Of a stretch of 64,000 bases of DNA, positions 5,800 through 63,931 are shown piece by piece. Every line of letters begins with the position of its first letter. Positions within the stretch are counted from its first letter, which is position 1. Source of the DNA: a virus. Taxonomy: Duplodnaviria > Heunggongvirae > Uroviricota > Caudoviricetes. Location of the stretch: IMG/VR virus record IMGVR_UViG_3300045988_010208; one strand, 5' to 3'. Below the pieces are notes generated by a model. That model made no database searches. It was not told the origin of the DNA and saw nothing but the letters and a program-made list of their open reading frames with translations. The position numbers were made by a program, and so were the translations under genes.

Positions 5800-6966
5800 A
5801 TGGCAGTAGGTGAAATTCAAATTAGTGCCTTGCCTCAAGCAGCCTTACCAATTGACCTTAGTGATATCTTCCATCTTAAGCAGGGTATTGAGGATAAGAG
5901 ATGCACTCTTGAGCAATTACTTGCTCCACACTCAAGCCTAAGAAATAACCCTCACGGTGTTACTAAAACACAAATTGGTTTAGATAACGTTATCAATGCT
6001 CTTCAGTTAGTTGCTGCAAATAACTTATCAGATGTTACTAATGTCACTGAGGCAAGGGCAAATCTACAGATTATGTCTTCAGAAGAGGTTAATAGCCTTG
6101 TCCAACAGCATATTAATGATAAGAGTAATCCACACAATACAACTAAAGCACAGGTTGGTTTAAGTAATGTTCAGAACTGGACAACATCCAACCTTTATAA
6201 TGAAGATGCAGATAAGTACGCTACAGCAAGAGCAGTAAATAACTTGTACAAGGCTGTTCAGGCTTCTTATCCAGTAGGTACTATCCATCTCTCTATGAAT
6301 CCTGCAAACCCTTCTACATATTTAATTTGTGGAGGTACTTGGGAGTTAGTTTCAAGAGGAAGAGCACTTGTAGGTTATGATAGTGCTTCTAGGCCAGTTG
6401 GTAGTAACTTTGGCTCAAGTAGTATTAGTTTATCTAGTAACAACCTACCATCACATAGCCATTCAATCTATCTAACTGGTGGTGGGCATACTCATGGTGC
6501 TACTATTACTATTGATGGCTTTGATTACGGCAATAAGAGCACAAACAGTTTCGATTATGGAACAAAGACCACTAATAGCACTGGTGCTCACACCCACTCA
6601 GTGAGTGGTTCAACAAATACCACAGGTAATCACACACATACTGTAGGTGGTCGTTACGGAGGTGACTCTATTGGTGGTAAACAACGTGTTCAGGTCTCAG
6701 GGACTGCTCAGGTTTCCAGTGTAGCTGGTGACCACTCACACACTATTAGCGGTTCAACAAATACCACAGGCAATCACCAACACACTGTTGCAATTGGTGC
6801 TCACACGCATACTGTTGCAATTGGTGCTCATACCCATAAAGGCACAGTAACTTTGCAGTCATCTGAGCATACTCACTCAGGTACTACAGGCACTACAGGT
6901 GCTGGTCAAGCATTTAGCGTTGAACAACCATCCTTTGTGGTTTATGTATGGCAAAGAACCGCTTAA
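5800..6966 (+). CDS. tail fiber protein with His-rich HxH repeat tip domain
   Basis: 388 aa; C-terminal region carries repeated GAHTHSVSG / GNHTHTVGG / AIGAHTHTV motifs like the metal-coordinating HxH repeats of T4-type fiber tips; C-terminal ~140 aa paralogous to that of the next gene. Confidence 0.6.
   Translation: MAVGEIQISALPQAALPIDLSDIFHLKQGIEDKRCTLEQLLAPHSSLRNNPHGVTKTQIGLDNVINALQLVAANNLSDVTNVTEARANLQIMSSEEVNSLVQQHINDKSNPHNTTKAQVGLSNVQNWTTSNLYNEDADKYATARAVNNLYKAVQASYPVGTIHLSMNPANPSTYLICGGTWELVSRGRALVGYDSASRPVGSNFGSSSISLSSNNLPSHSHSIYLTGGGHTHGATITIDGFDYGNKSTNSFDYGTKTTNSTGAHTHSVSGSTNTTGNHTHTVGGRYGGDSIGGKQRVQVSGTAQVSSVAGDHSHTISGSTNTTGNHQHTVAIGAHTHTVAIGAHTHKGTVTLQSSEHTHSGTTGTTGAGQAFSVEQPSFVVYVWQRTA
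6550..6960 (+). repeat. paralogous tail-fiber tip segment (copy 1)
   Basis: DNA and protein similarity to 9010-9365, e.g. shared GGTGCTCACACCCACTCAGTGAGTGGTTC and GGTGGTCGTTA.GG.GGTGACTCTAT.GGTGGTAAACAACGTGTTCAGGT. Confidence 0.8.
6784..6837 (+). repeat. 27-bp tandem duplication inside fiber tip coding sequence
   Basis: ACTGTTGCAATTGGTGCTCACACGCAT followed immediately by ACTGTTGCAATTGGTGCTCATACCCAT (encodes TVAIGAHTH twice). Confidence 0.8.
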
Positions 6967-7017: not shown

Positions 7018-9369
7018 ATGGCAGATTACAAGTTGAGTGAATTAAACTCAATCGATACAATCCGTTCAGATGACCTTCTTCATGTCAGGGTTAAAAAGAG
7101 ACCTGAAATGCTGGGTGATGAAGACCGTCGAATGACCTATCAAGATTTCTTAGCATCTTTTAAGCTTGAAAGATTTGTTCAGATTGCTGGTAGCACTATG
7201 ACGGGTGACTTAGGGATTGTTAAGTTACTTTATGGTGGTAAGGCAGTCTTTGACCCTACAGGCTCTTCTGAGATTAATATTGGGGATGTTTTAAAGACTT
7301 TTAAAATTAACGCAAATGGTCTTAAACTAACTATTGCAGATGCTTCGAGGTCAGCAACTGTTTATCATACTCTGAATAAACCAAGTCCTAATGAACTTGG
7401 GATGAGAACTAATGAAGAGAATGATGCAAGATATGCAAAACTGGCTAACTCGAATACGTTTAAAGCCAAGCAAACTATTACATCGAATGGTGAGATTTTA
7501 ACGCTAGTCACCCCTGCGGAGGCGAGTTCAGCGTACTGTGCCCTTGTAGGTAGAGACGCGAGTAATGAAAAGAATTGGGCTATTGGGAACCTAATTAGAG
7601 GCAGCTTTGATGTTCAAATCAAGAGTAGACAAGGTTCCATCCTCACTCTAGGTACAACTGTAACGATTAATAAGACCCTTGCTGTTGTTGGTCAGGTCAA
7701 ACCTTCTGACTTCTCTAACTTAGATGCTAGATACTTTACTCAGACAGTTGCTAATCAGAGATTTGCACAGTTAGCTGGCAATAACACATTTAGTGGTTCT
7801 AATATTTTCACTAATAATTTTGTTATTAAGAAGAATGCTAATGCTATTACTATTCAAAATGTAGATACAACTACGGCTTTGTATATCCAAGCAAGAAAAT
7901 CAGATGGAGCTAATAAGTGGTACATTGGCAATGACGGTGATGAGAGTATTGTAAACATCTATAACTATTTAGCAAAAACACAAATCTCACTAGGCAACAC
8001 CATTACTATGAGCAAAACAGTCCAAATTGGTGGTCAAGTTCAACCTTCTGATTGGACTAACATTGACTCTAGATATATTCCGGCAGCAACATTAAGTACA
8101 ATTGCAAGAACTAATGCACAAAATACTTTTAATGGTGTACAGAAAGTTGTTACTGATGCTGAAGCCCTAATTGTGAAAAACTATACTCAGAACAGACCAT
8201 TGTATATCCGTGGTGTGGACACTGCTAATGTGTCAAGGTGGTGGGTAGGTGTTGGTGGGGCAGATACTAATGATGTAACACTAAATAACAGTTTTTCTGG
8301 CACTCAGTTAGTTTTAGGTAACTCATCTGCAAGTATCAATAAGACATTAACCCTAGCAGGGCAGATTCAACCCTCAGATTTCTCTAACTTAGATGCCAGA
8401 TACTTTACTCAATCAGCAGCTAATCAGGAATTTATGTATGCAGGTTCCACAGGTACTGGTAGTGAAGTAGGTGATAGTGATGGCATTGCTTGGAATGCTA
8501 AAACTGGTCTGTATAATGTTACAGGTTATGGTGGAGGCTCAACACAACTTGTTTTCCAAATGTATCAGGGTGCAAGCTCTACTCCCTCTGCTCAATTAAA
8601 ATTCAACTACAGGAATGGGGGTTTTTGGTATAGGTCATCAAGGGATGGTTTTGGTTTTGAAGAGGACTTCACACAAATTTATACAGAGAAGTATAAACCA
8701 ACTCCTTCAGCTATTGGTGCATACACTAAAGCAGAGACTGACCAGAAGATTGCAGAAGCGATTAGTGACTCTACAGACCTGAATAAAATCTATCCAGTAG
8801 GGATTGTGACATGGTTTAACAGTAATGTTAACCCTAATACAGCACTCCCTGGGTTAACTTGGACGTATCTGAACAATGGTGTTGGTAGAACTATTAGAAT
8901 TGCAGCAGCAAACGGTTCAGATGTTGCTACAACTGGTGGTTCAGATTCTGTAACGTTATCTGTTGGTAACTTACCTTCACACACTCATAGCTTCTCTGCG
9001 ACTACTTCATCATTTGACTATGGTACTAAAACCACTAACACTACTGGTGCTCACACCCACTCAGTGAGTGGTTCTACTAACAACACTGGTGCTCATACAC
9101 ATACAGTTGGTGGTCGTTATGGTGGTGACTCTATCGGTGGTAAACAACGTGTTCAGGTATCTGGTACAGAACAGGTATCTAGCTCTGCTGGTGCTCACGC
9201 TCACACTGTATCTGGTACTGCTGCCTCTAACGGAAACCATGCTCACACTGTTGGTATTGGTGCTCACAGTCATACAGTTAGTGGTAACACTGGTGGTACA
9301 GGTTCTGGTTCAGCATTTAGTGTAACTAACCAGTTCTATAAGCTGATGGCTTGGGTAAGAACTGCTTAA
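7018..9369 (+). CDS. long tail fiber protein (receptor-binding) with internal repeats and HxH tip domain
   Basis: 783 aa; three internal ~40-aa repeats (..GQVKPSDFSNLDARYFTQ..); C-terminus LPSHTHSFS..GAHTHSVSG..GNHAHTVGIGAHSHTVSG paralogous to 5800-6966. Confidence 0.65.
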   Translation: MADYKLSELNSIDTIRSDDLLHVRVKKRPEMLGDEDRRMTYQDFLASFKLERFVQIAGSTMTGDLGIVKLLYGGKAVFDPTGSSEINIGDVLKTFKINANGLKLTIADASRSATVYHTLNKPSPNELGMRTNEENDARYAKLANSNTFKAKQTITSNGEILTLVTPAEASSAYCALVGRDASNEKNWAIGNLIRGSFDVQIKSRQGSILTLGTTVTINKTLAVVGQVKPSDFSNLDARYFTQTVANQRFAQLAGNNTFSGSNIFTNNFVIKKNANAITIQNVDTTTALYIQARKSDGANKWYIGNDGDESIVNIYNYLAKTQISLGNTITMSKTVQIGGQVQPSDWTNIDSRYIPAATLSTIARTNAQNTFNGVQKVVTDAEALIVKNYTQNRPLYIRGVDTANVSRWWVGVGGADTNDVTLNNSFSGTQLVLGNSSASINKTLTLAGQIQPSDFSNLDARYFTQSAANQEFMYAGSTGTGSEVGDSDGIAWNAKTGLYNVTGYGGGSTQLVFQMYQGASSTPSAQLKFNYRNGGFWYRSSRDGFGFEEDFTQIYTEKYKPTPSAIGAYTKAETDQKIAEAISDSTDLNKIYPVGIVTWFNSNVNPNTALPGLTWTYLNNGVGRTIRIAAANGSDVATTGGSDSVTLSVGNLPSHTHSFSATTSSFDYGTKTTNTTGAHTHSVSGSTNNTGAHTHTVGGRYGGDSIGGKQRVQVSGTEQVSSSAGAHAHTVSGTAASNGNHAHTVGIGAHSHTVSGNTGGTGSGSAFSVTNQFYKLMAWVRTA
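9010..9365 (+). repeat. paralogous tail-fiber tip segment (copy 2)
   Basis: See 6550-6960; about 85% identical stretches at nucleotide level. Confidence 0.8.
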
Positions 9370-9448
9370 TCCCTTATTGACTGATTGTTAAGATGGTGTT
9401 AATATTCTTTATGGGTATTCTCACCATCTTGGCTGATGAGGTGATTAA

Positions 9449-9643
9449 ATGCCTACAATCCTAGCAATTCTTCTAAAAAATCTAGGTAGTTTCTTCTGGA
9501 AACTCATTTTATCCCTTCTAAGTGAATACATGATTGAGAAAGTGTTCTTTAAGCTTGCAAGATACCTTGCGAGTAAAACAGACACACCTATTGATGATGA
9601 GTTCGTAGATAACTTAGAAAAAGCTTTTAAGGGGGAGAAATAA
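9449..9643 (+). CDS. small hydrophobic protein
   Basis: 64-aa ORF with hydrophobic N-terminal half, directly after the tail fiber gene. Confidence 0.3.
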   Translation: MPTILAILLKNLGSFFWKLILSLLSEYMIEKVFFKLARYLASKTDTPIDDEFVDNLEKAFKGEK

Positions 9644-10015
9644 ATGAAGTGGCTAGAGGAAGCTTTTAAAAATAATATTGGTGCAATTGTAGTTGGTATT
9701 TTTAGTGTTATTGGGATGTATACCACCATGCAAGTTTCGGATGGTAAACAAGAAGTGTCTATCACAACAAAGTTACAGCAGTTAGATAATTATTCCAAAA
9801 GTAATTATTCAGCTATTCGTGATTTACAGTCTGATATGAGGCTGCTTCAGCTAGGGATGGAGAACCAGAAAGTCCAGTTAGAGAATGTTAAGGGTGAGAA
9901 CGCAAAACTTACTAAGACTCTTGATAAATTCTCTGATAGTGTGAACAATCTGGCTCAATCAGTATCAGCCCTCCAAGCTATTACTGAAAAGAACACAAAG
10001 AATACTGAAAAGTAA
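9644..10015 (+). CDS. membrane-anchored coiled-coil protein
   Basis: 123 aa; one N-terminal hydrophobic helix (IGAIVVGIFSVIGMY) then heptad-like Q/L/N-rich region; followed by an intrinsic terminator. Confidence 0.4.
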   Translation: MKWLEEAFKNNIGAIVVGIFSVIGMYTTMQVSDGKQEVSITTKLQQLDNYSKSNYSAIRDLQSDMRLLQLGMENQKVQLENVKGENAKLTKTLDKFSDSVNNLAQSVSALQAITEKNTKNTEK

Positions 10016-10021
10016 AGTTTA

Positions 10022-10055
10022 AGGCTCCTTTTTACGGGAGCCTTTTTTGTTTTAT
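10022..10055. terminator. intrinsic terminator between convergent genes
   Basis: Hairpin GGCTCC-TTTTTAC-GGGAGCC followed by TTTTTTGTTTTATTT; sits between the 3' ends of 9644-10015 (+) and thyA (-). Confidence 0.7.
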
Positions 10056-10951
10056 TTACCTACTGACAAAGGTGCTTCAATCTTTCCTGCATGTTGGTAA
10101 TTGTAAATGCCACCAATAAAATCACTTGCAGTGAGATGTTTTAAGTCACTTAAAGTGTTAAGTGGGATACCAATCTCAAAAGTTGGTGCATGGAACTCTT
10201 CATTGTTCATCAGTTCATAAACCTGCTTCATATGATTCTGATAAATCTGAGTATCTCCAAAGACACCTATCAAGTACCGTGGAGTGTATCCAGTCATCTT
10301 ACAAAGAACTTCCAGAATAAAACCATAAGATGCAATATTAAACGGGAGTCCTAAAAAGGTGTCTACTGAACGCTGATACCATTGTAAGTCAACTTCACCC
10401 TCGTTAGTGATATAAATCTGAAACAGAACATGACAAGGTGCTAAAGCCATCGAGTTGGATGCAATATCTGCTGCATTCCAAGCATTAACAAGCATGTAGC
10501 GGTCTGTAATATCACCCTTCATCTTCGTTACTAAGGTCTCTAACTGGTCTACAACACAACCATTATGACCTTCAAAGTTTCTCCACTGAACCCCGTAGAT
10601 TCTCCCACCTGCGTCATCTAACCAGTCTTGTTCAGAAGAATAATTAGAGCTTAACCAGCGTTTAAAATCATCTGACCAGATAGTCCAGCGTTCTCCATCA
10701 TTTTCATCCCAAGTGCGGTAACGGAGTTCACCCAGTTTATTCTCACCATTCAGGAACCATAAAGCTTCCCCAATAACTTGCCGTGTAAACACCTGTTTAG
10801 ATGTTAAGAGCGGGAAACCAGTTCGCATATCAAAACGAAACTGAGGTGGAGCAAAAGCAGAGATAACATCTCCAGTTCGTGTAGTACGCAGTTCACCAAC
10901 GGATAAAACATGGTTCAAGATATTTTTGTAACTTGTATCTGCTTGTGACAT
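10052..10951 (-). CDS. thyA: thymidylate synthase
   Basis: 299 aa; ThyA signatures: RTGFPLLTSKQVF, EALWFLNG, active-site ALAPCHVLFQ. Confidence 0.92.
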   Translation of the reverse strand: MSQADTSYKNILNHVLSVGELRTTRTGDVISAFAPPQFRFDMRTGFPLLTSKQVFTRQVIGEALWFLNGENKLGELRYRTWDENDGERWTIWSDDFKRWLSSNYSSEQDWLDDAGGRIYGVQWRNFEGHNGCVVDQLETLVTKMKGDITDRYMLVNAWNAADIASNSMALAPCHVLFQIYITNEGEVDLQWYQRSVDTFLGLPFNIASYGFILEVLCKMTGYTPRYLIGVFGDTQIYQNHMKQVYELMNNEEFHAPTFEIGIPLNTLSDLKHLTASDFIGGIYNYQHAGKIEAPLSVGK

Positions 10952-44001: not shown

Positions 44002-46368
44002 ATGCGCATGGTAAATGACCACGCAGAAGTGATTAAGAGTTCAACTTCTTTGGAGACATCTCAAGCACAGATTACAATGACACCTGAAATGTTCAGCCTT
44101 CTGAGTTCTGGTGTATACACATTCAAAGAAAGGGCAGTGATTCGTGAACTGTCATGTAATGCAGTAGATGCTCAGAAAGAAGCTGGAAAAGAGAACATCC
44201 CATTCCATGTGCATTTACCTACTCGATTTGAGCCTTACTTTGAAGTCCGTGACTTTGGAACTGGTTTAACCCATGACAAAGTAATGAGTTTGTACCTGAA
44301 CTACGGGGCTTCTACGAAGAATGACTCTAATGATTACATTGGTGCAATGGGTATCGGCTCAAAATCACCATTTGCAATTGCTCAGTCATTCACAGTGTCT
44401 AGCTATGTTGATGGTGTTGTTAATAAGTACTCTGTTTACCTTGAGAATGGTATCCCTCAAGTAACTAAGCTTACTACTAACCCAACAAATGAACCTAATG
44501 GCTTAGCTGTACGTGTGGCAGTTGCTGACCACCGTATTTCAAAGTTCTTTGAAGAGGCTGGTCACGTATACTCATACTTTGCTGTAAAACCAGAAAGTAA
44601 CATTGTATATGATGATGTGTTAGCAGATATGAACGTCATTGCTCGTGAAGAAGGTGTTTATGATGCCATGATTCATAAGCAAAGCTGGCGTTCTAGTGGT
44701 AACAGGACAGAGTTTAATGTGGTGATGGGTAATATTGCCTATCCAGTGAACATGGAAGCATTACTTGGTGATGATTTCTTCAAAGTCTTGCCAGAGTTTT
44801 TCCGTAGGAGCGTAGACCTTGTAAACATTTACATGCCTATTGGTTCAGTCGCTATTGCAGCTTCTCGTGAAGCATTGCAGATGAATGATACGACAAAAAA
44901 TGTTATCATTGAGGCTACTAAAAAGATAACTGAAGCAATTACAAAGGATGTTATCAAGAAAGTTAATAGCCAACCTACACTCATGGATGCTGCACAGGCT
45001 TATGCAGAGTTACGTTTGAACTCACGAGAAATGTTTAATGCTGTGTGTCCAAAGCTAGAGTGGGGAGGTGTTAAGCTTGATTCTCTGGAAGAAGAATTGC
45101 TAAACATTCGTCGTGGGATTATCTACGCAGAAGACGGCTCAGTCATTTATGAACGTGACGGTAAAGGTAATATCAAGGTTGATAGGAACGGGAACAATAT
45201 CCCTAAAGTGGATTATCTTTATAATCCAGTTGCTTATGTCAAGTTCAACTCTTTAGAGAGTAAGATTCGTGCAACAGCACTTTCCTACACTCAAGAGGCA
45301 AGTATGTTCAATATCTTTGGTGCAATGCGTAAAAGCCAAATTGAACAGTTTTTGTTCGTGATAAATGACCGTCGTAATAAAAATGGCACTGAGAAGACTG
45401 TAGGCCGCAATCAGATTCTGCGTGGTGCATGTCGAGATTACGCCAATGAGTCAAATCTGTTTCACAGATACAATGGTATTGTGTTTGTATTCTCGACTGA
45501 AAAAGAGTTAGATGATTTAATCAACCTGCATAAACTTGATAAAAGTTTGTTAAAGATTGTGAAAATGTCTGATAAGGAGCACCATTACCAGCGTAAAGAA
45601 GCTGTCAGGGGTGTTGTAAAACTCTGGAAAGCAGTTCCGGCAGAAGGTGTAGCCTCCTACAAAGAGGTGTCAGAAGACTTAGACACAATTGAAGAACCTC
45701 AGCTTTACATTAAGGCAGTTGGTGACACAGTTGATGGCGAATGTTTTTGCTCATCTCCAGAAGATGTAGCTAAGTCAGTTGCTAATGTTATAGGGAAGAC
45801 AGTCTATGTTTTCCGAAAAGCAAATTGGAAAAAGATACCAGAAGACTGGATTGAAGTAGATGAGAAGCTCTTGAACGACAGCTTAACTGATGTTCATTGG
45901 ATTAATCATAACAGGTATATGACACGCATCTACATGAATGGTGTTCTTGACCTTACAAGCAGTTGGATTATTGCCAGAAACTTTACATTCAATAACAGGA
46001 AGATTTCTCGTGGCTATTGCTATTCACGAGATACTAGCAAAACTATCTTCCTAGAAGGTAATGAAGAGGCTGTAGAGGCTATGTTCGGTAAAATCCAGTA
46101 TGTTGCTGCACCGTTTGCATACACTTACACTATTAGTAGATTGCAAACTTTGAAAGAATGCCTTGACAATGATACAAAACTGTACAAGAAAATTAAGAAA
46201 GCTGGTGACCGCATGGTCATTAAGGTGACAAACTACCTTTCAAAAAGAAAACAAGAGAACTTCTTGCTTTCTCATTTAGATTGGAATAAAGTGTCACCCA
46301 TCGAAGTGAGTAAGTTCTTAGGCTTTGATGTGAAGTGTGTTCCAGAAGGGACTACAATTTACGATTAA
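44002..46368 (+). CDS. rIIA: rIIA-like protein with N-terminal GHKL-type ATPase motifs
   Basis: 788 aa; N-terminal RELSCNAVDAQ, RDFGTGL and GAMGIGSKSPF boxes as in T4 rIIA / GHKL ATPases. Confidence 0.65.
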   Translation: MRMVNDHAEVIKSSTSLETSQAQITMTPEMFSLLSSGVYTFKERAVIRELSCNAVDAQKEAGKENIPFHVHLPTRFEPYFEVRDFGTGLTHDKVMSLYLNYGASTKNDSNDYIGAMGIGSKSPFAIAQSFTVSSYVDGVVNKYSVYLENGIPQVTKLTTNPTNEPNGLAVRVAVADHRISKFFEEAGHVYSYFAVKPESNIVYDDVLADMNVIAREEGVYDAMIHKQSWRSSGNRTEFNVVMGNIAYPVNMEALLGDDFFKVLPEFFRRSVDLVNIYMPIGSVAIAASREALQMNDTTKNVIIEATKKITEAITKDVIKKVNSQPTLMDAAQAYAELRLNSREMFNAVCPKLEWGGVKLDSLEEELLNIRRGIIYAEDGSVIYERDGKGNIKVDRNGNNIPKVDYLYNPVAYVKFNSLESKIRATALSYTQEASMFNIFGAMRKSQIEQFLFVINDRRNKNGTEKTVGRNQILRGACRDYANESNLFHRYNGIVFVFSTEKELDDLINLHKLDKSLLKIVKMSDKEHHYQRKEAVRGVVKLWKAVPAEGVASYKEVSEDLDTIEEPQLYIKAVGDTVDGECFCSSPEDVAKSVANVIGKTVYVFRKANWKKIPEDWIEVDEKLLNDSLTDVHWINHNRYMTRIYMNGVLDLTSSWIIARNFTFNNRKISRGYCYSRDTSKTIFLEGNEEAVEAMFGKIQYVAAPFAYTYTISRLQTLKECLDNDTKLYKKIKKAGDRMVIKVTNYLSKRKQENFLLSHLDWNKVSPIEVSKFLGFDVKCVPEGTTIYD

Positions 46369-46373
46369 AGTGT

Positions 46374-46403
46374 TTGACAAGGGGCTTCAAAGCCCCTTAG
46401 AAT
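46374..46403 (+). promoter_or_regulatory. promoter-like element with hairpin in spacer
   Basis: TTGACA, then GGGGCTT-CAA-AGCCCC hairpin, then TAGAAT at 18-nt spacing; about 45 nt upstream of 46448. Confidence 0.4.
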
Positions 46404-46447
46404 AGCCTTACAAAATGGTTTATTAACTAACAAGAGAGAGTAATAAG

Positions 46448-47557
46448 ATGACTACTAAAACTAAAGCACAGATTGACGCAGAAATTTACAAACTGGTTAA
46501 AGAAGGTAAGCTGACTAAAACAGCTATTGCACAGAAATTTAATACTTCAACCCGTTCAGTTGGTCGTGCTGTAGAGCGTCATGAAGCAACCTTAAAAGGT
46601 AATAAGAAGGCGACTTCTACACCAGCTACGAAGACTTTGAAACAAGTTGCTAAGACTTTTAAAAAGAAATCTGGCAAACAAGTTGAAAAGGTCGTTAAAG
46701 ATGCTGTACAGAAAGCTCCAGTAAATAAACTGCATGAAGCTATGCAGAAAGATGACAAAATTGAGTACATGATTACTGGTGACTCTGTAATTATGACTTA
46801 CGGTTCAGAGTCTGAAATTGTTGAATCTACTCATCCGAACTATCAAGAGATTGTAGTTCATGTTGTGAAAGGTGAGTTCAAGAAAGCCTTTGAACTGATG
46901 AACATTCGTAAGTCTATCGAAAACTTCACTCAGGGTGCTATCACAATCAAAGGTGACAAGTTATTCTACGGTGCTGTTGAGATGCGCTCTACTCTGGTTG
47001 ACCGTATTCTTCACATGATGAAGACTGGAGATAAAGGTTTTGAACGCCTTGTGATGTTCTTCGAAAAACTGATGGAAAACCCATCTAAAGACTCTGTAGA
47101 ACAACTTTGGGGCTTTGTATCTCACCTTGATGTTGAAATTGATGAAGAAGGCTACATCATTGGTTGGAAGAAAGTCTCTACTCGTGAAGGTAAGCTGGTT
47201 GACTCCCACACCTACAGAGTACCTAATGATTTGGGTAACATTGTAGAGATGCCACGTTGGATGGTTGATAATAACCGTAACGTAACTTGCTCTCAAGGTC
47301 TTCATGTTGGTGCTTGGGATTATGTTCGTTGCTTCTCAGGTGATACAATCCTGAAGGTTCGTGTCCATCCACGAGATGTTGTATCTGTTCCAACTGATTA
47401 CAATGATATGAAGATGCGCTCGTCTCGTTATGAAGTTGCAGCAATCGTTGATAGTCAACGTAAAGTGCTGAAAGCATGGGATGGCAAGACTGACGCTTTA
47501 CATGTCATCGTCGGTACTGCTGGAGAACTTATCTCCCAACGTAAACGTGAAATCTAA
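46448..47557 (+). CDS. rIIB: putative rIIB-like protein
   Basis: 369-aa ORF immediately downstream of the rIIA-like gene; N-terminal HTH-like segment; call rests on synteny. Confidence 0.4.
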   Translation: MTTKTKAQIDAEIYKLVKEGKLTKTAIAQKFNTSTRSVGRAVERHEATLKGNKKATSTPATKTLKQVAKTFKKKSGKQVEKVVKDAVQKAPVNKLHEAMQKDDKIEYMITGDSVIMTYGSESEIVESTHPNYQEIVVHVVKGEFKKAFELMNIRKSIENFTQGAITIKGDKLFYGAVEMRSTLVDRILHMMKTGDKGFERLVMFFEKLMENPSKDSVEQLWGFVSHLDVEIDEEGYIIGWKKVSTREGKLVDSHTYRVPNDLGNIVEMPRWMVDNNRNVTCSQGLHVGAWDYVRCFSGDTILKVRVHPRDVVSVPTDYNDMKMRSSRYEVAAIVDSQRKVLKAWDGKTDALHVIVGTAGELISQRKREI

Positions 47558-49406: not shown

Positions 49407-49754
49407 ATGACATTTAAAGAGTTCTGTCAAGCCACTTTCATAATTGTTTTCTTAGTTGGGGCAGGTGTCTGGGGAGGATACTCTTACAGAGACTATCAAG
49501 TTGCTGAAACTGAGCTAAACAACCAAAAGCTCATAAGTGTTGCTAAAGATGCTTATCAGGAAGGATTAGTCACACTGAGCACCAATTACAAAAATGATTT
49601 GAAAGATGTGCTTGCTAAGAATAAGCATACAAAAGAGGTACTAACATATGAAAAAACTAAGCCAGAGTTTTATAATGTTTGTGTTACTGATAACTATGTC
49701 AGGGTGTTCAACGAACAAAGTGAGCAGTACATTCAAAAACTCCCAAGTAAGTGA
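49407..49754 (+). CDS. candidate i-spanin (inner-membrane anchored periplasmic protein)
   Basis: 115 aa; N-terminal TM helix FIIVFLVGAGVWGGY then charged helical region; 3' end overlapped out of frame by a lipoprotein ORF. Confidence 0.4.
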   Translation: MTFKEFCQATFIIVFLVGAGVWGGYSYRDYQVAETELNNQKLISVAKDAYQEGLVTLSTNYKNDLKDVLAKNKHTKEVLTYEKTKPEFYNVCVTDNYVRVFNEQSEQYIQKLPSK

Positions 49755-49917
49755 GAGTGATAAGTACACTCAAGAAGAATCACGGTACATCATCAAAGGC
49801 AACACAGGCAGTGATGTAGCAGCAGCCCTTGAGTTCTATCGTGATGGATTTTACCAGTGCACAATCAAAGCTAATAACCTTATTGATATGATTTTATTAG
49901 GGAATAAGCAGCAATGA
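49648..49917 (+). CDS. candidate o-spanin (outer-membrane lipoprotein)
   Basis: 89 aa; signal peptide MKKLSQSFIMFVLLITMSGC with lipobox-like MSGC; starts inside 49407-49754 in another frame. Confidence 0.4.
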   Translation: MKKLSQSFIMFVLLITMSGCSTNKVSSTFKNSQVSESDKYTQEESRYIIKGNTGSDVAAALEFYRDGFYQCTIKANNLIDMILLGNKQQ

Positions 49918-63466: not shown

Positions 63467-63931
63467 TTACTTTGGGTATACACTGTCAAGATAAATGTCA
63501 GCTTCCATTCTACGTCTGTTTTTCAGGCCGTTTGAAGTGACCTTCTTACCTTTGACTGTAACCTTGTTCCACCATTGCATAGCTTCTGCACAACCGACCT
63601 TATTACCAGCATTGTGGCGCTTGATAAATGTGGAATCCTGCATAGCTGTGATGCCAATGTTGTATGTTTCACTTACAAGTGCGTCAAACTCGTTCTGAGA
63701 AGTTGGAACCTTGACGGCTTTATTCACTGCTGCAACGAACTTTTCAACATCTTCGAGAAGATACTGTTCAGCTTGTTCAGCGGTAATCTTCATACCCATC
63801 TTAACAGGTTTACCAGAAATACGGATTGTCCCGTACCCAATTGTAGGGATTCCAGCAGAATCTTCGTAAGCCTCTAGCTTAAGACCTTCAAAGAACTTAA
63901 TAGCTTCTAAACCTTTTCTTGAGAGTTGCAT
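63467..63931 (-). CDS. endolysin, phage lysozyme (GH24, P22 gp19 / T4 e-like)
   Basis: 154 aa; LEAIKFFEGLKLEAYEDSAGIPTIGYGT matches the catalytic Glu/Asp region and GYGH-type motif of lambdoid/P22 lysozymes. Confidence 0.85.
   Translation of the reverse strand: MQLSRKGLEAIKFFEGLKLEAYEDSAGIPTIGYGTIRISGKPVKMGMKITAEQAEQYLLEDVEKFVAAVNKAVKVPTSQNEFDALVSETYNIGITAMQDSTFIKRHNAGNKVGCAEAMQWWNKVTVKGKKVTSNGLKNRRRMEADIYLDSVYPK

Follow-up and report, generated by a model that had tools for sequence, protein, structure and literature searches.

The window analysed here is a stretch of 64,000 nucleotides from a Caudoviricetes virus record (IMGVR_UViG_3300045988_010208), in which two small consecutive open reading frames, ORF1 and ORF2, follow a long tail fibre gene. 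Both are present where a reading of the letters alone, hereafter the sequence-only reading, had placed them (Table 1). The region 9000-10100 shares 95-98% DNA identity with over 200 Felix O1-like myophages, whose hosts are Salmonella, E. coli, Shigella and Citrobacter, and judged by this identity the phage is a Felixounavirus. ORF1 and ORF2 equal ORF189 and ORF190 of Felix O1 (AF320576), which Whichard et al., 2010 (PMC3185647) number as gp78 and gp79, with gp77 being the tail fibre; the counterparts in phage Bas63 are bas63_0028 and bas63_0029. The gene upstream of ORF1 is gp37-like, with matches to the Pfam families gp37_trimer and gp37_C. With moderate confidence we interpret the pair as a late, translationally coupled lysis module in which ORF2 would be the holin-like partner of a P18-type ORF1; that the two proteins are involved in lysis in a broader sense appears probable.

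Table 1. Features at the ORF1-ORF2 locus and lysis-related genes elsewhere in the window.
Feature	Position	Strand	Remarks
Shorter tail fibre gene	5800-6966		
Longer tail fibre gene	7018-9369		783 amino acids, gp37-like
Intergenic element	9370-9448	+	promoter-like site, hairpin, ORF1 ribosome-binding site
ORF1	9449-9643	+	64 amino acids, Felix O1 gp78/ORF189; assigned by sequence to the PM2 P18 (gp l) family
ORF2	9644-10015	+	123 amino acids, Felix O1 gp79/ORF190; predicted bitopic membrane coiled-coil protein
Intrinsic terminator	10021-10054	+	between ORF2 and the convergent thymidylate synthase gene
Thymidylate synthase gene	10052-10951	-	convergent with ORF2
rIIA/rIIB	44002-47554	+	
i-spanin	49407-49754	+	overlaps o-spanin
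o-spanin	49648-49917	+	lipobox LIIMSGC
Endolysin	63470-63931	-	

ORF1 and ORF2 are real and strongly constrained genes. Compared with the orthologues of Suspvirus SUSP1, synonymous sites are saturated (synonymous divergence, dS, > 1) while nonsynonymous divergence (dN) is as low as 0.03-0.05, so that dN/dS is about 0.02-0.04 for both reading frames; values ranged from about 0.02 to 0.1 for ORF1 and from about 0.02 to 0.08 for ORF2. Purifying selection on the two genes is thus strong. The stop codon of ORF1 abuts the start codon of ORF2 (TAA-ATG), and the start of the second frame on the base right after the first suggests translational coupling. Together with the low dN/dS of both genes, this junction fits a joint function of the two products. 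A minus-strand reading frame at 9445-9765 (106 amino acids, 'ORF188' of Felix O1) was rejected as spurious, as substitutions follow the plus-strand frames. The strong terminator that had been noticed behind ORF2 consists of a 9-bp G+C-rich stem and a T-run (stem at 10021-10044, then TTTTTTGTTTT; RNA minimum free energy -14.3 kcal/mol, z = -3.4). It serves the ORF2 side and the convergent thymidylate synthase gene alike, and the record of phage phiEa21-4 marks a terminator at the equivalent position. This terminator closes the late (tail fibre) transcription unit; in Felix O1, the fibre genes neighbouring gp78 and gp79 are transcribed late (PMC3185647).

Profile searches place ORF1 in the family of PM2 protein P18 (gp l). 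A hidden Markov model (HMM) of ten members from outside the Ounavirinae matched ORF1 with E = 2.3e-21 (71 bits), and an HMM of the two corticovirus gp l sequences alone did so with E = 2.2e-9; with both models, ORF1 was the sole significant match among 918 six-frame segments of the window. ORF1 and PM2 gp l align from end to end with 33% identity. Residues E26, A37 and D49 are invariant in an alignment of eight ORF1/P18 sequences; among 12 aligned sequences, A37 and D49 never vary and D50 hardly does. The precomputed label PF26925 ('Phage_PM2_Gpl') is carried by a protein identical to ORF1 and by all 23 close relatives. Our own Pfam and NCBIfam scans returned no match for ORF1, the Pfam copy used being one without the PF26925 model, and the PHROG match was to phrog_402 (E = 1.4e-22), which is labelled as of unknown function. 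Taken together, these comparisons make it almost certain that ORF1 belongs to the P18 family, PF26925. Relatives were detected by tblastn in 399 phage records, among them RB49-like T4-type phages, Erwinia Kolesnikvirus, 7-11-like podophages, Vibrio phages and the corticovirus ORF 'gp l'. The relationship itself was reported earlier: Krupovic and Bamford (2007; PMC1950889) listed homologues of P18 (gene XVIII, ORF l) in PaP3, Felix O1, RB49, P-SSM4, S-PM2 and P-SSM2, and it is now a Pfam family. What our analysis adds is independent confirmation of the assignment.

In keeping with the family pattern of 50-80 amino acids, an N-terminal helix and the motif A..LA.K(T/S).(T/N)..DD(E), ORF1 has a long N-terminal hydrophobic or amphipathic helix in its structural model and the conserved motif A..LA.KT.T..DDEF. 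The AlphaFold2 model comprises a helix at residues 3-43, a loop at 44-49 at the conserved TDTPID and a second helix at 50-60 (mean predicted local distance difference test, pLDDT, 73). ORF1 had been described as hydrophobic, which is true of its N-terminal 25 residues but not of its charged C-terminal half. Residues 3-25 are hydrophobic, interrupted by K10 and K18, and their Kyte-Doolittle maximum of 1.56 is marginal for a membrane helix; residues 26-64 contain seven K/R and nine D/E, giving a net charge of about 0 with an acidic C-terminal half. A predicted membrane helix is absent from several family members, including PM2 gp l.

The only member of this family with a studied function is that of PM2, to which gp78 and gp79 are tied by the family assignment of gp78. 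In PM2, the cytoplasmic membrane is pierced by P17 (gp k, gene XVII), degradation of the cell wall is probably due to host factors, and P18 assists in breaking the outer membrane apart (Krupovic, Daugelavicius and Bamford, 2007, Mol Microbiol 64:1635; reviewed in PMC6356626). A lysis defect at the outer-membrane step upon loss of the gene has been reported for PM2 only (summarized in PMC6356626).

For ORF2, the sequence-only reading had described an N-terminal transmembrane helix followed by a heptad-like region rich in Q, L and N, and each of these features was borne out. The hydrophobic segment spans residues 12-29 (Kyte-Doolittle 1.62) and is flanked on each side by two K/R and two D/E, thus balanced in charge. 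Residues 38-122 (85 residues; L, N and Q together 33%) form an unbroken coiled coil of 12 heptads in one register, with 17 of 24 a/d positions hydrophobic, a score reached by 18 of 2000 shuffled sequences. The AlphaFold2 model shows a helix at 2-30, a disordered loop at 31-37 and a single long helix at 38-122 (pLDDT 72.5). Across genera, the N-terminus, the membrane helix and the distal motif K..LDKFSDSVNNL..SV are conserved, and the middle of the coiled coil varies. Homologues of ORF2 were confined to the Ounavirinae in tblastn searches, the Kolesnikvirus protein being only 25% identical, and large protein searches returned almost exclusively near-identical Felixounavirus proteins. An exhaustive search of 1.8 billion representative proteins yielded only two distant relatives, of 114 and 128 amino acids and similar architecture. 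ORF2 matches phrog_4038, labelled as of unknown function, and Pfam, PHROG and NCBIfam scans otherwise gave sub-threshold coiled-coil noise (DivIC, SMC and Rz-like spanins, E about 0.01). A Foldseek search of the ORF2 model against BFVD returned no matches, and profile searches of the PDB with the ORF1 and ORF2 families gave generic coiled-coil or designed-helix matches only, besides a weak match to hemolysin E (E = 0.012).

ORF2 is small, has one predicted membrane helix and a hydrophilic C-terminus, and so shows the general features of a holin. It was among five holin candidates of Felix O1 named on topology alone (Whichard et al., 2010; PMC3185647), and many records label it 'holin' or 'putative holin', including those of Moogle and Michonne from the Texas A&M Center for Phage Technology, while those of Felix O1, Bas63 and Mushroom call it hypothetical. 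The genome note of Mushroom assigns the term 'class III holin' to another protein of 185 amino acids (PMC4392139), which is encoded inside the tRNA cluster (L004:11949-12506) and is a DUF7338 protein (PF24027), not a T4-type holin. Thus, the holin of Felix O1-like phages is annotated inconsistently across records, and the label on ORF2 is putative and contradicted between them. From its architecture, position and annotation habit, a holin-like role of ORF2 is plausible.

The neighbourhoods of P18-like genes were inspected in seven lineages. In the corticoviruses PM2 and GXT1010, the P17 gene, encoding 49-53 amino acids with one membrane helix and a short coiled coil, precedes the P18-like gene. 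In the Pseudomonas phages Bjorn, PaP3 and NV1, the P18-like gene is overlapped downstream by a gene for an 82 amino acid single-helix coiled-coil protein, and this partner gene occurs in about 100 Bruynoghevirus-like genomes. The Ounavirinae, Kolesnikvirus included, have the P18-like gene followed by ORF2, whose product resembles P17 in having an N-terminal membrane helix and then a coiled coil and in being encoded beside a P18 gene. In the RB49-like phage JSE, gp37 is followed by the P18-like gene and then by a true T holin (Phage_holin_T, 1.6e-60), and in a Vibrio phage a lysozyme gene directly precedes the P18-like gene. That a P18-like gene recurs beside a gene for a single-helix coiled-coil protein in three phage lineages unrelated to each other, together with the T holin neighbour in JSE, supports the idea of a late lysis module. 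The absence of gp78 and gp79 from the virion proteome of Felix O1 and the late transcription of the adjacent fibre genes (PMC3185647) likewise speak for it. No mutual homology between the partner proteins was demonstrable, so the link between them is one of architecture and position only. All pairs of the Bruynoghevirus-like phages (PaP3 ORF10/ORF11, LUZ24 gp59/gp58, Bjorn Gp62/Gp61 and that of NV1) are annotated as hypothetical and lie between head and tail genes, for example at L016:2986-3418, L019:1326-1749 and L020:826-1252; the partner proteins start with MKWL or MQLL.

This distribution also bears on the proposal, one of two made in the sequence-only reading, that the pair serves as assembly or chaperone factors of the tail fibre. 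In this case the two proteins would functionally replace T4 gp38 for the upstream gp37-like fibre. The position directly after the gp37-like gene in Ounavirinae would suit such a role, as would that of the ORF1 homologue of RB49-like phages, which likewise follows the fibre gene and fills the slot of T4 gene 38; moreover, gp78 and gp79 were not detected in the virion proteome of Felix O1 (PMC3185647), as would be expected of chaperones. However, neither protein matched a chaperone family, be it of the gp38, gp57A or Tfa type, the value of E = 0.098 for ORF2 against phrog_15939 ('tail assembly chaperone') being noise. The ORF1 family occurs in PM2, which has no fibres and whose member is assigned to lysis, after a Vibrio phage lysozyme gene and between head and tail genes of podophages, and membrane anchoring or a hydrophobic N-terminus is atypical of known fibre chaperones. 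We regard this proposal as highly improbable. The other one, a holin/antiholin-type pair, agrees with the evidence as far as lysis in general is favoured; a pair of this kind as such is not favoured, the family of ORF1 being that of an accessory outer-membrane lysis factor and not of a holin or antiholin.

In the lysis module that we favour, which stands at the end of the tail fibre operon and would be partly related to the P17/P18 system of PM2, ORF1 would be a small, mostly helical and membrane-active protein that, by analogy with P18, helps to destabilize the outer membrane at the last step of lysis. ORF2 would form a coiled-coil oligomer anchored in the inner membrane and working together with ORF1. 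Most likely it would be a holin-like or timing component, a functional counterpart of P17 and a positional counterpart of the T4 holin T, which permeabilizes or marks the inner membrane so that the endolysin and ORF1 can reach the wall and the outer membrane. For Felix O1-like phages, all of these steps, the topology of ORF2 and any contact between it and ORF1 are inferred.

Comparison with PM2 reveals both likeness and difference. In both phages the P18 gene occupies the very end of the late operon, lies downstream of a receptor-binding protein gene and is accompanied by a gene whose product has one N-terminal membrane helix and a coiled coil. The order of the two genes is inverted, however, as the P18-like gene comes first here, and P17 (53 amino acids) is much shorter than ORF2 and has no detectable sequence homology to it. 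PM2 lacks spanins and is reported to depend on autolysins of its host, whereas the phage studied here encodes an endolysin of its own together with a canonical spanin pair. In T4, the late operon ends with genes 37, 38 and t. The arrangement here resembles that of T4 and JSE in the succession of a gp37-like fibre gene, a small gene and a gene for a single-helix membrane protein at an operon end facing convergent genes. JSE has the ORF1 homologue as its small gene and a genuine T holin (PF11031) as its membrane protein, but ORF2 does not belong to Phage_holin_T and gave no match to that profile; T has a globular periplasmic domain, ORF2 a coiled coil.

Several observations weigh against the interpretation as a lysis module with a holin-like ORF2. 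Alignment of the ORF2 family with PM2 gp k by hhalign gave a probability of 0.3%, an HMM of the P17 proteins of PM2 and GXT1010 did not match ORF2, and the comparison of ORF2 with the Pseudomonas partner (Bjorn Gp61/PaP3 ORF11) reached a probability of 6%, which is not significant. None of the holin families in Pfam, PHROG and NCBIfam matched ORF2 (phrog_1296, a holin family, E = 0.084); its best lysis-related PHROG score, with phrog_739, was not significant either (E = 0.0097). The very strong conservation of ORF2 is unusual for holins, and the 'holin' of Mushroom, a different protein, comes from the same annotation group as the labels in Moogle and Michonne. No gene for a membrane protein adjoins the P18-like gene in 7-11-like podophages and in cyanophage S-CAM9. 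The endolysin gene is not adjacent to ORF2 but about 54 kb away; as the T4 holin gene also lies away from its endolysin gene, this distance does not disqualify ORF2. The canonical overlapped spanin pair of the window makes a further outer-membrane disruptor look redundant. Finally, our literature search found no experiment on gp78 or gp79 for any Felix O1-like phage.

The spanin genes are relevant to a further explanation, in which ORF1 and ORF2 constitute a lipoprotein-free system for disruption of the outer membrane, with ORF2 as an i-spanin-like protein bearing a periplasmic coiled coil of ~12 nm, ORF1 as its outer-membrane partner and the true holin elsewhere, for example the DUF7338 protein. 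ORF2 resembles the i-spanin of lambda Rz/Rz1-type systems in size, N-terminal anchor and helical coiled-coil domain. It has weak matches to PHROG families of Rz-like spanins (E = 0.01-0.05), and its conservation peaks at the far end of the coiled coil, the part with which i-spanins bind their partners. The ORF1 family is tied to the same step as these spanins, disruption of the outer membrane having been assigned to P18 (PMC6356626). In addition, PM2, PaP3, LUZ24, TL, P-SSM2, P-SSM4 and S-PM2 are all on the list of 'spanin-less' phages (Kongari et al., 2018; PMC6139136); PM2, PaP3 and the three cyanophages are carriers of P18 homologues named in the literature, and a homologue of the partner gene is present in LUZ24 and TL. 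Bruynogheviruses have a lysozyme and a two-helix holin candidate separate from the pair. On the other hand, the PHROG spanin matches are not significant, the coiled coil of ORF2 runs through as a single helix instead of two that are joined by a hinge, the balanced flanks of its membrane helix favour neither orientation, and ORF1 has no signal peptide. No credible lipobox reading frame was found embedded in, overlapping or adjoining ORF2 that could encode a cognate outer-membrane lipoprotein of the o-spanin type, and spanins that look functional are already present in Felix O1-like phages, overlapped two-component spanins having been described for Felix O1, Mushroom and Moogle (Kongari et al., 2018; PMC6139136). 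On balance, we consider this explanation unlikely.

Two candidates were examined and rejected in this context. Homology of ORF2 to the i-spanin of the same phage was not significant. An embedded o-spanin reading frame within ORF2 (9693-9782, TTG start, 30 codons, other frame, LVFLVLLGC..) is an artefact of the membrane-helix codons: it would have an 8-residue leader with no charged n-region before the 'LLGC' and a mature peptide of 22 amino acids, its equivalent in phiEa21-4 is reduced to a 7 amino acid peptide, and it is not conserved beyond close relatives.

A wider claim is that P18-like genes and single-helix coiled-coil genes together form a widespread two-component system of envelope disruption distinct from spanins. 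Corticoviruses and all Ounavirinae conserve the pair, as do about 100 Bruynoghevirus-like phages of Pseudomonas, which are devoid of spanins; we put the claim forward tentatively and regard it as rather unlikely. The PaP3 ORF10/ORF11 type shares the two-gene arrangement, there with overlapping genes, and its partner starts with MKWLSDN.., resembling MKWLEEAFKNN.. in ORF2, but that partner has 82 amino acids, the genes are located between head and tail genes, and the phages have no spanins. Disruptin, gp28 of phage phiKT, is a cationic peptide that disrupts the outer membrane. It exemplifies a small helical factor that is no lipoprotein and that targets the outer membrane, either instead of spanins or in addition to them; in contrast to gp28, ORF1 has no net positive charge, and its C-terminal half is acidic. 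If the wider claim is true, Felix O1-like phages would have two parallel systems for disruption of the outer membrane, or ORF2 would represent a new class of coiled-coil holins. If the pair is a spanin-independent system, it would help to explain lysis by the roughly 13% of phages of Gram-negative hosts that are 'spanin-less'. ORF2 has been named as a holin candidate since 2010, and what is added here is the recurring pairing of P18-like genes with genes for single-helix coiled-coil proteins in unrelated lineages, along with the point that the holin label is putative and differs between records. For the most part, the finding corrects 'hypothetical protein' labels, in phages that are widely used in diagnostics and biocontrol of Salmonella and E. 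coli and whose holin labels conflict (gp79 versus DUF7338).

The 79-nucleotide gap between the longer fibre gene and ORF1 is itself conserved. It is near-invariant in Felixounavirus, Suspvirus and Sfl004 despite saturated synonymous sites in its flanks. It contains a sigma70-like sequence at 9377-9405 (TTGACT-17-TAATAT with TG) and a hairpin at about 9387-9434 with a predicted folding energy of -29.2 kcal/mol (z = -4.9), which has no T-run and preserves one compensatory change from C-G to U-A. The ribosome-binding site of ORF1, GAGGTG, is located 3' of the hairpin, whose outer stem pairs beside it. In phiEa21-4, a canonical terminator occupies the gap between the fibre gene and the ORF1 counterpart instead. 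A search of 9300-10100 against Rfam yielded no match near any threshold. This element may serve as a promoter, as an RNase III site or in the control of translation.

A promoter at this position would be of interest with regard to another possible function of the pair, namely superinfection exclusion, lysis inhibition or envelope protection by analogues of T4 Imm, Sp or RI, placed beside receptor-binding genes like cor and llp in other phages. The conserved sigma70-like sequence could permit expression of ORF1 and ORF2 independently of the late operon, both are small membrane proteins adjoining receptor-binding genes, and the phage carries rIIA and rIIB. Nevertheless, such a function seems improbable: the Pfam, PHROG and NCBIfam scans showed neither protein to be homologous to Imm, Sp, RI, Cor or Llp, the sole experimentally studied member of the ORF1 family is a lysis factor, and the receptor of Felix O1 is lipopolysaccharide, which is hard to mask for a receptor-blocking protein.

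Some minor observations concern the neighbouring genes and the records. The two tail fibre genes share His-rich repeats of the 'HTHSVSGST' type (Pfam Phage_fiber) and a Gp10_C-like domain, and the trimerization and C-terminal domains of T4 gp37 are situated mid-way in the longer of the two. Corresponding DNA repeats in genes 76 and 77 of Felix O1 were noted by Whichard et al., 2010 (PMC3185647). In the record of Mushroom (KP143762, 36859-36960), the ORF1 homologue is called from a late internal start as a protein of 33 amino acids; this call is truncated, since the full form of 64 amino acids is conserved there together with its ribosome-binding site.

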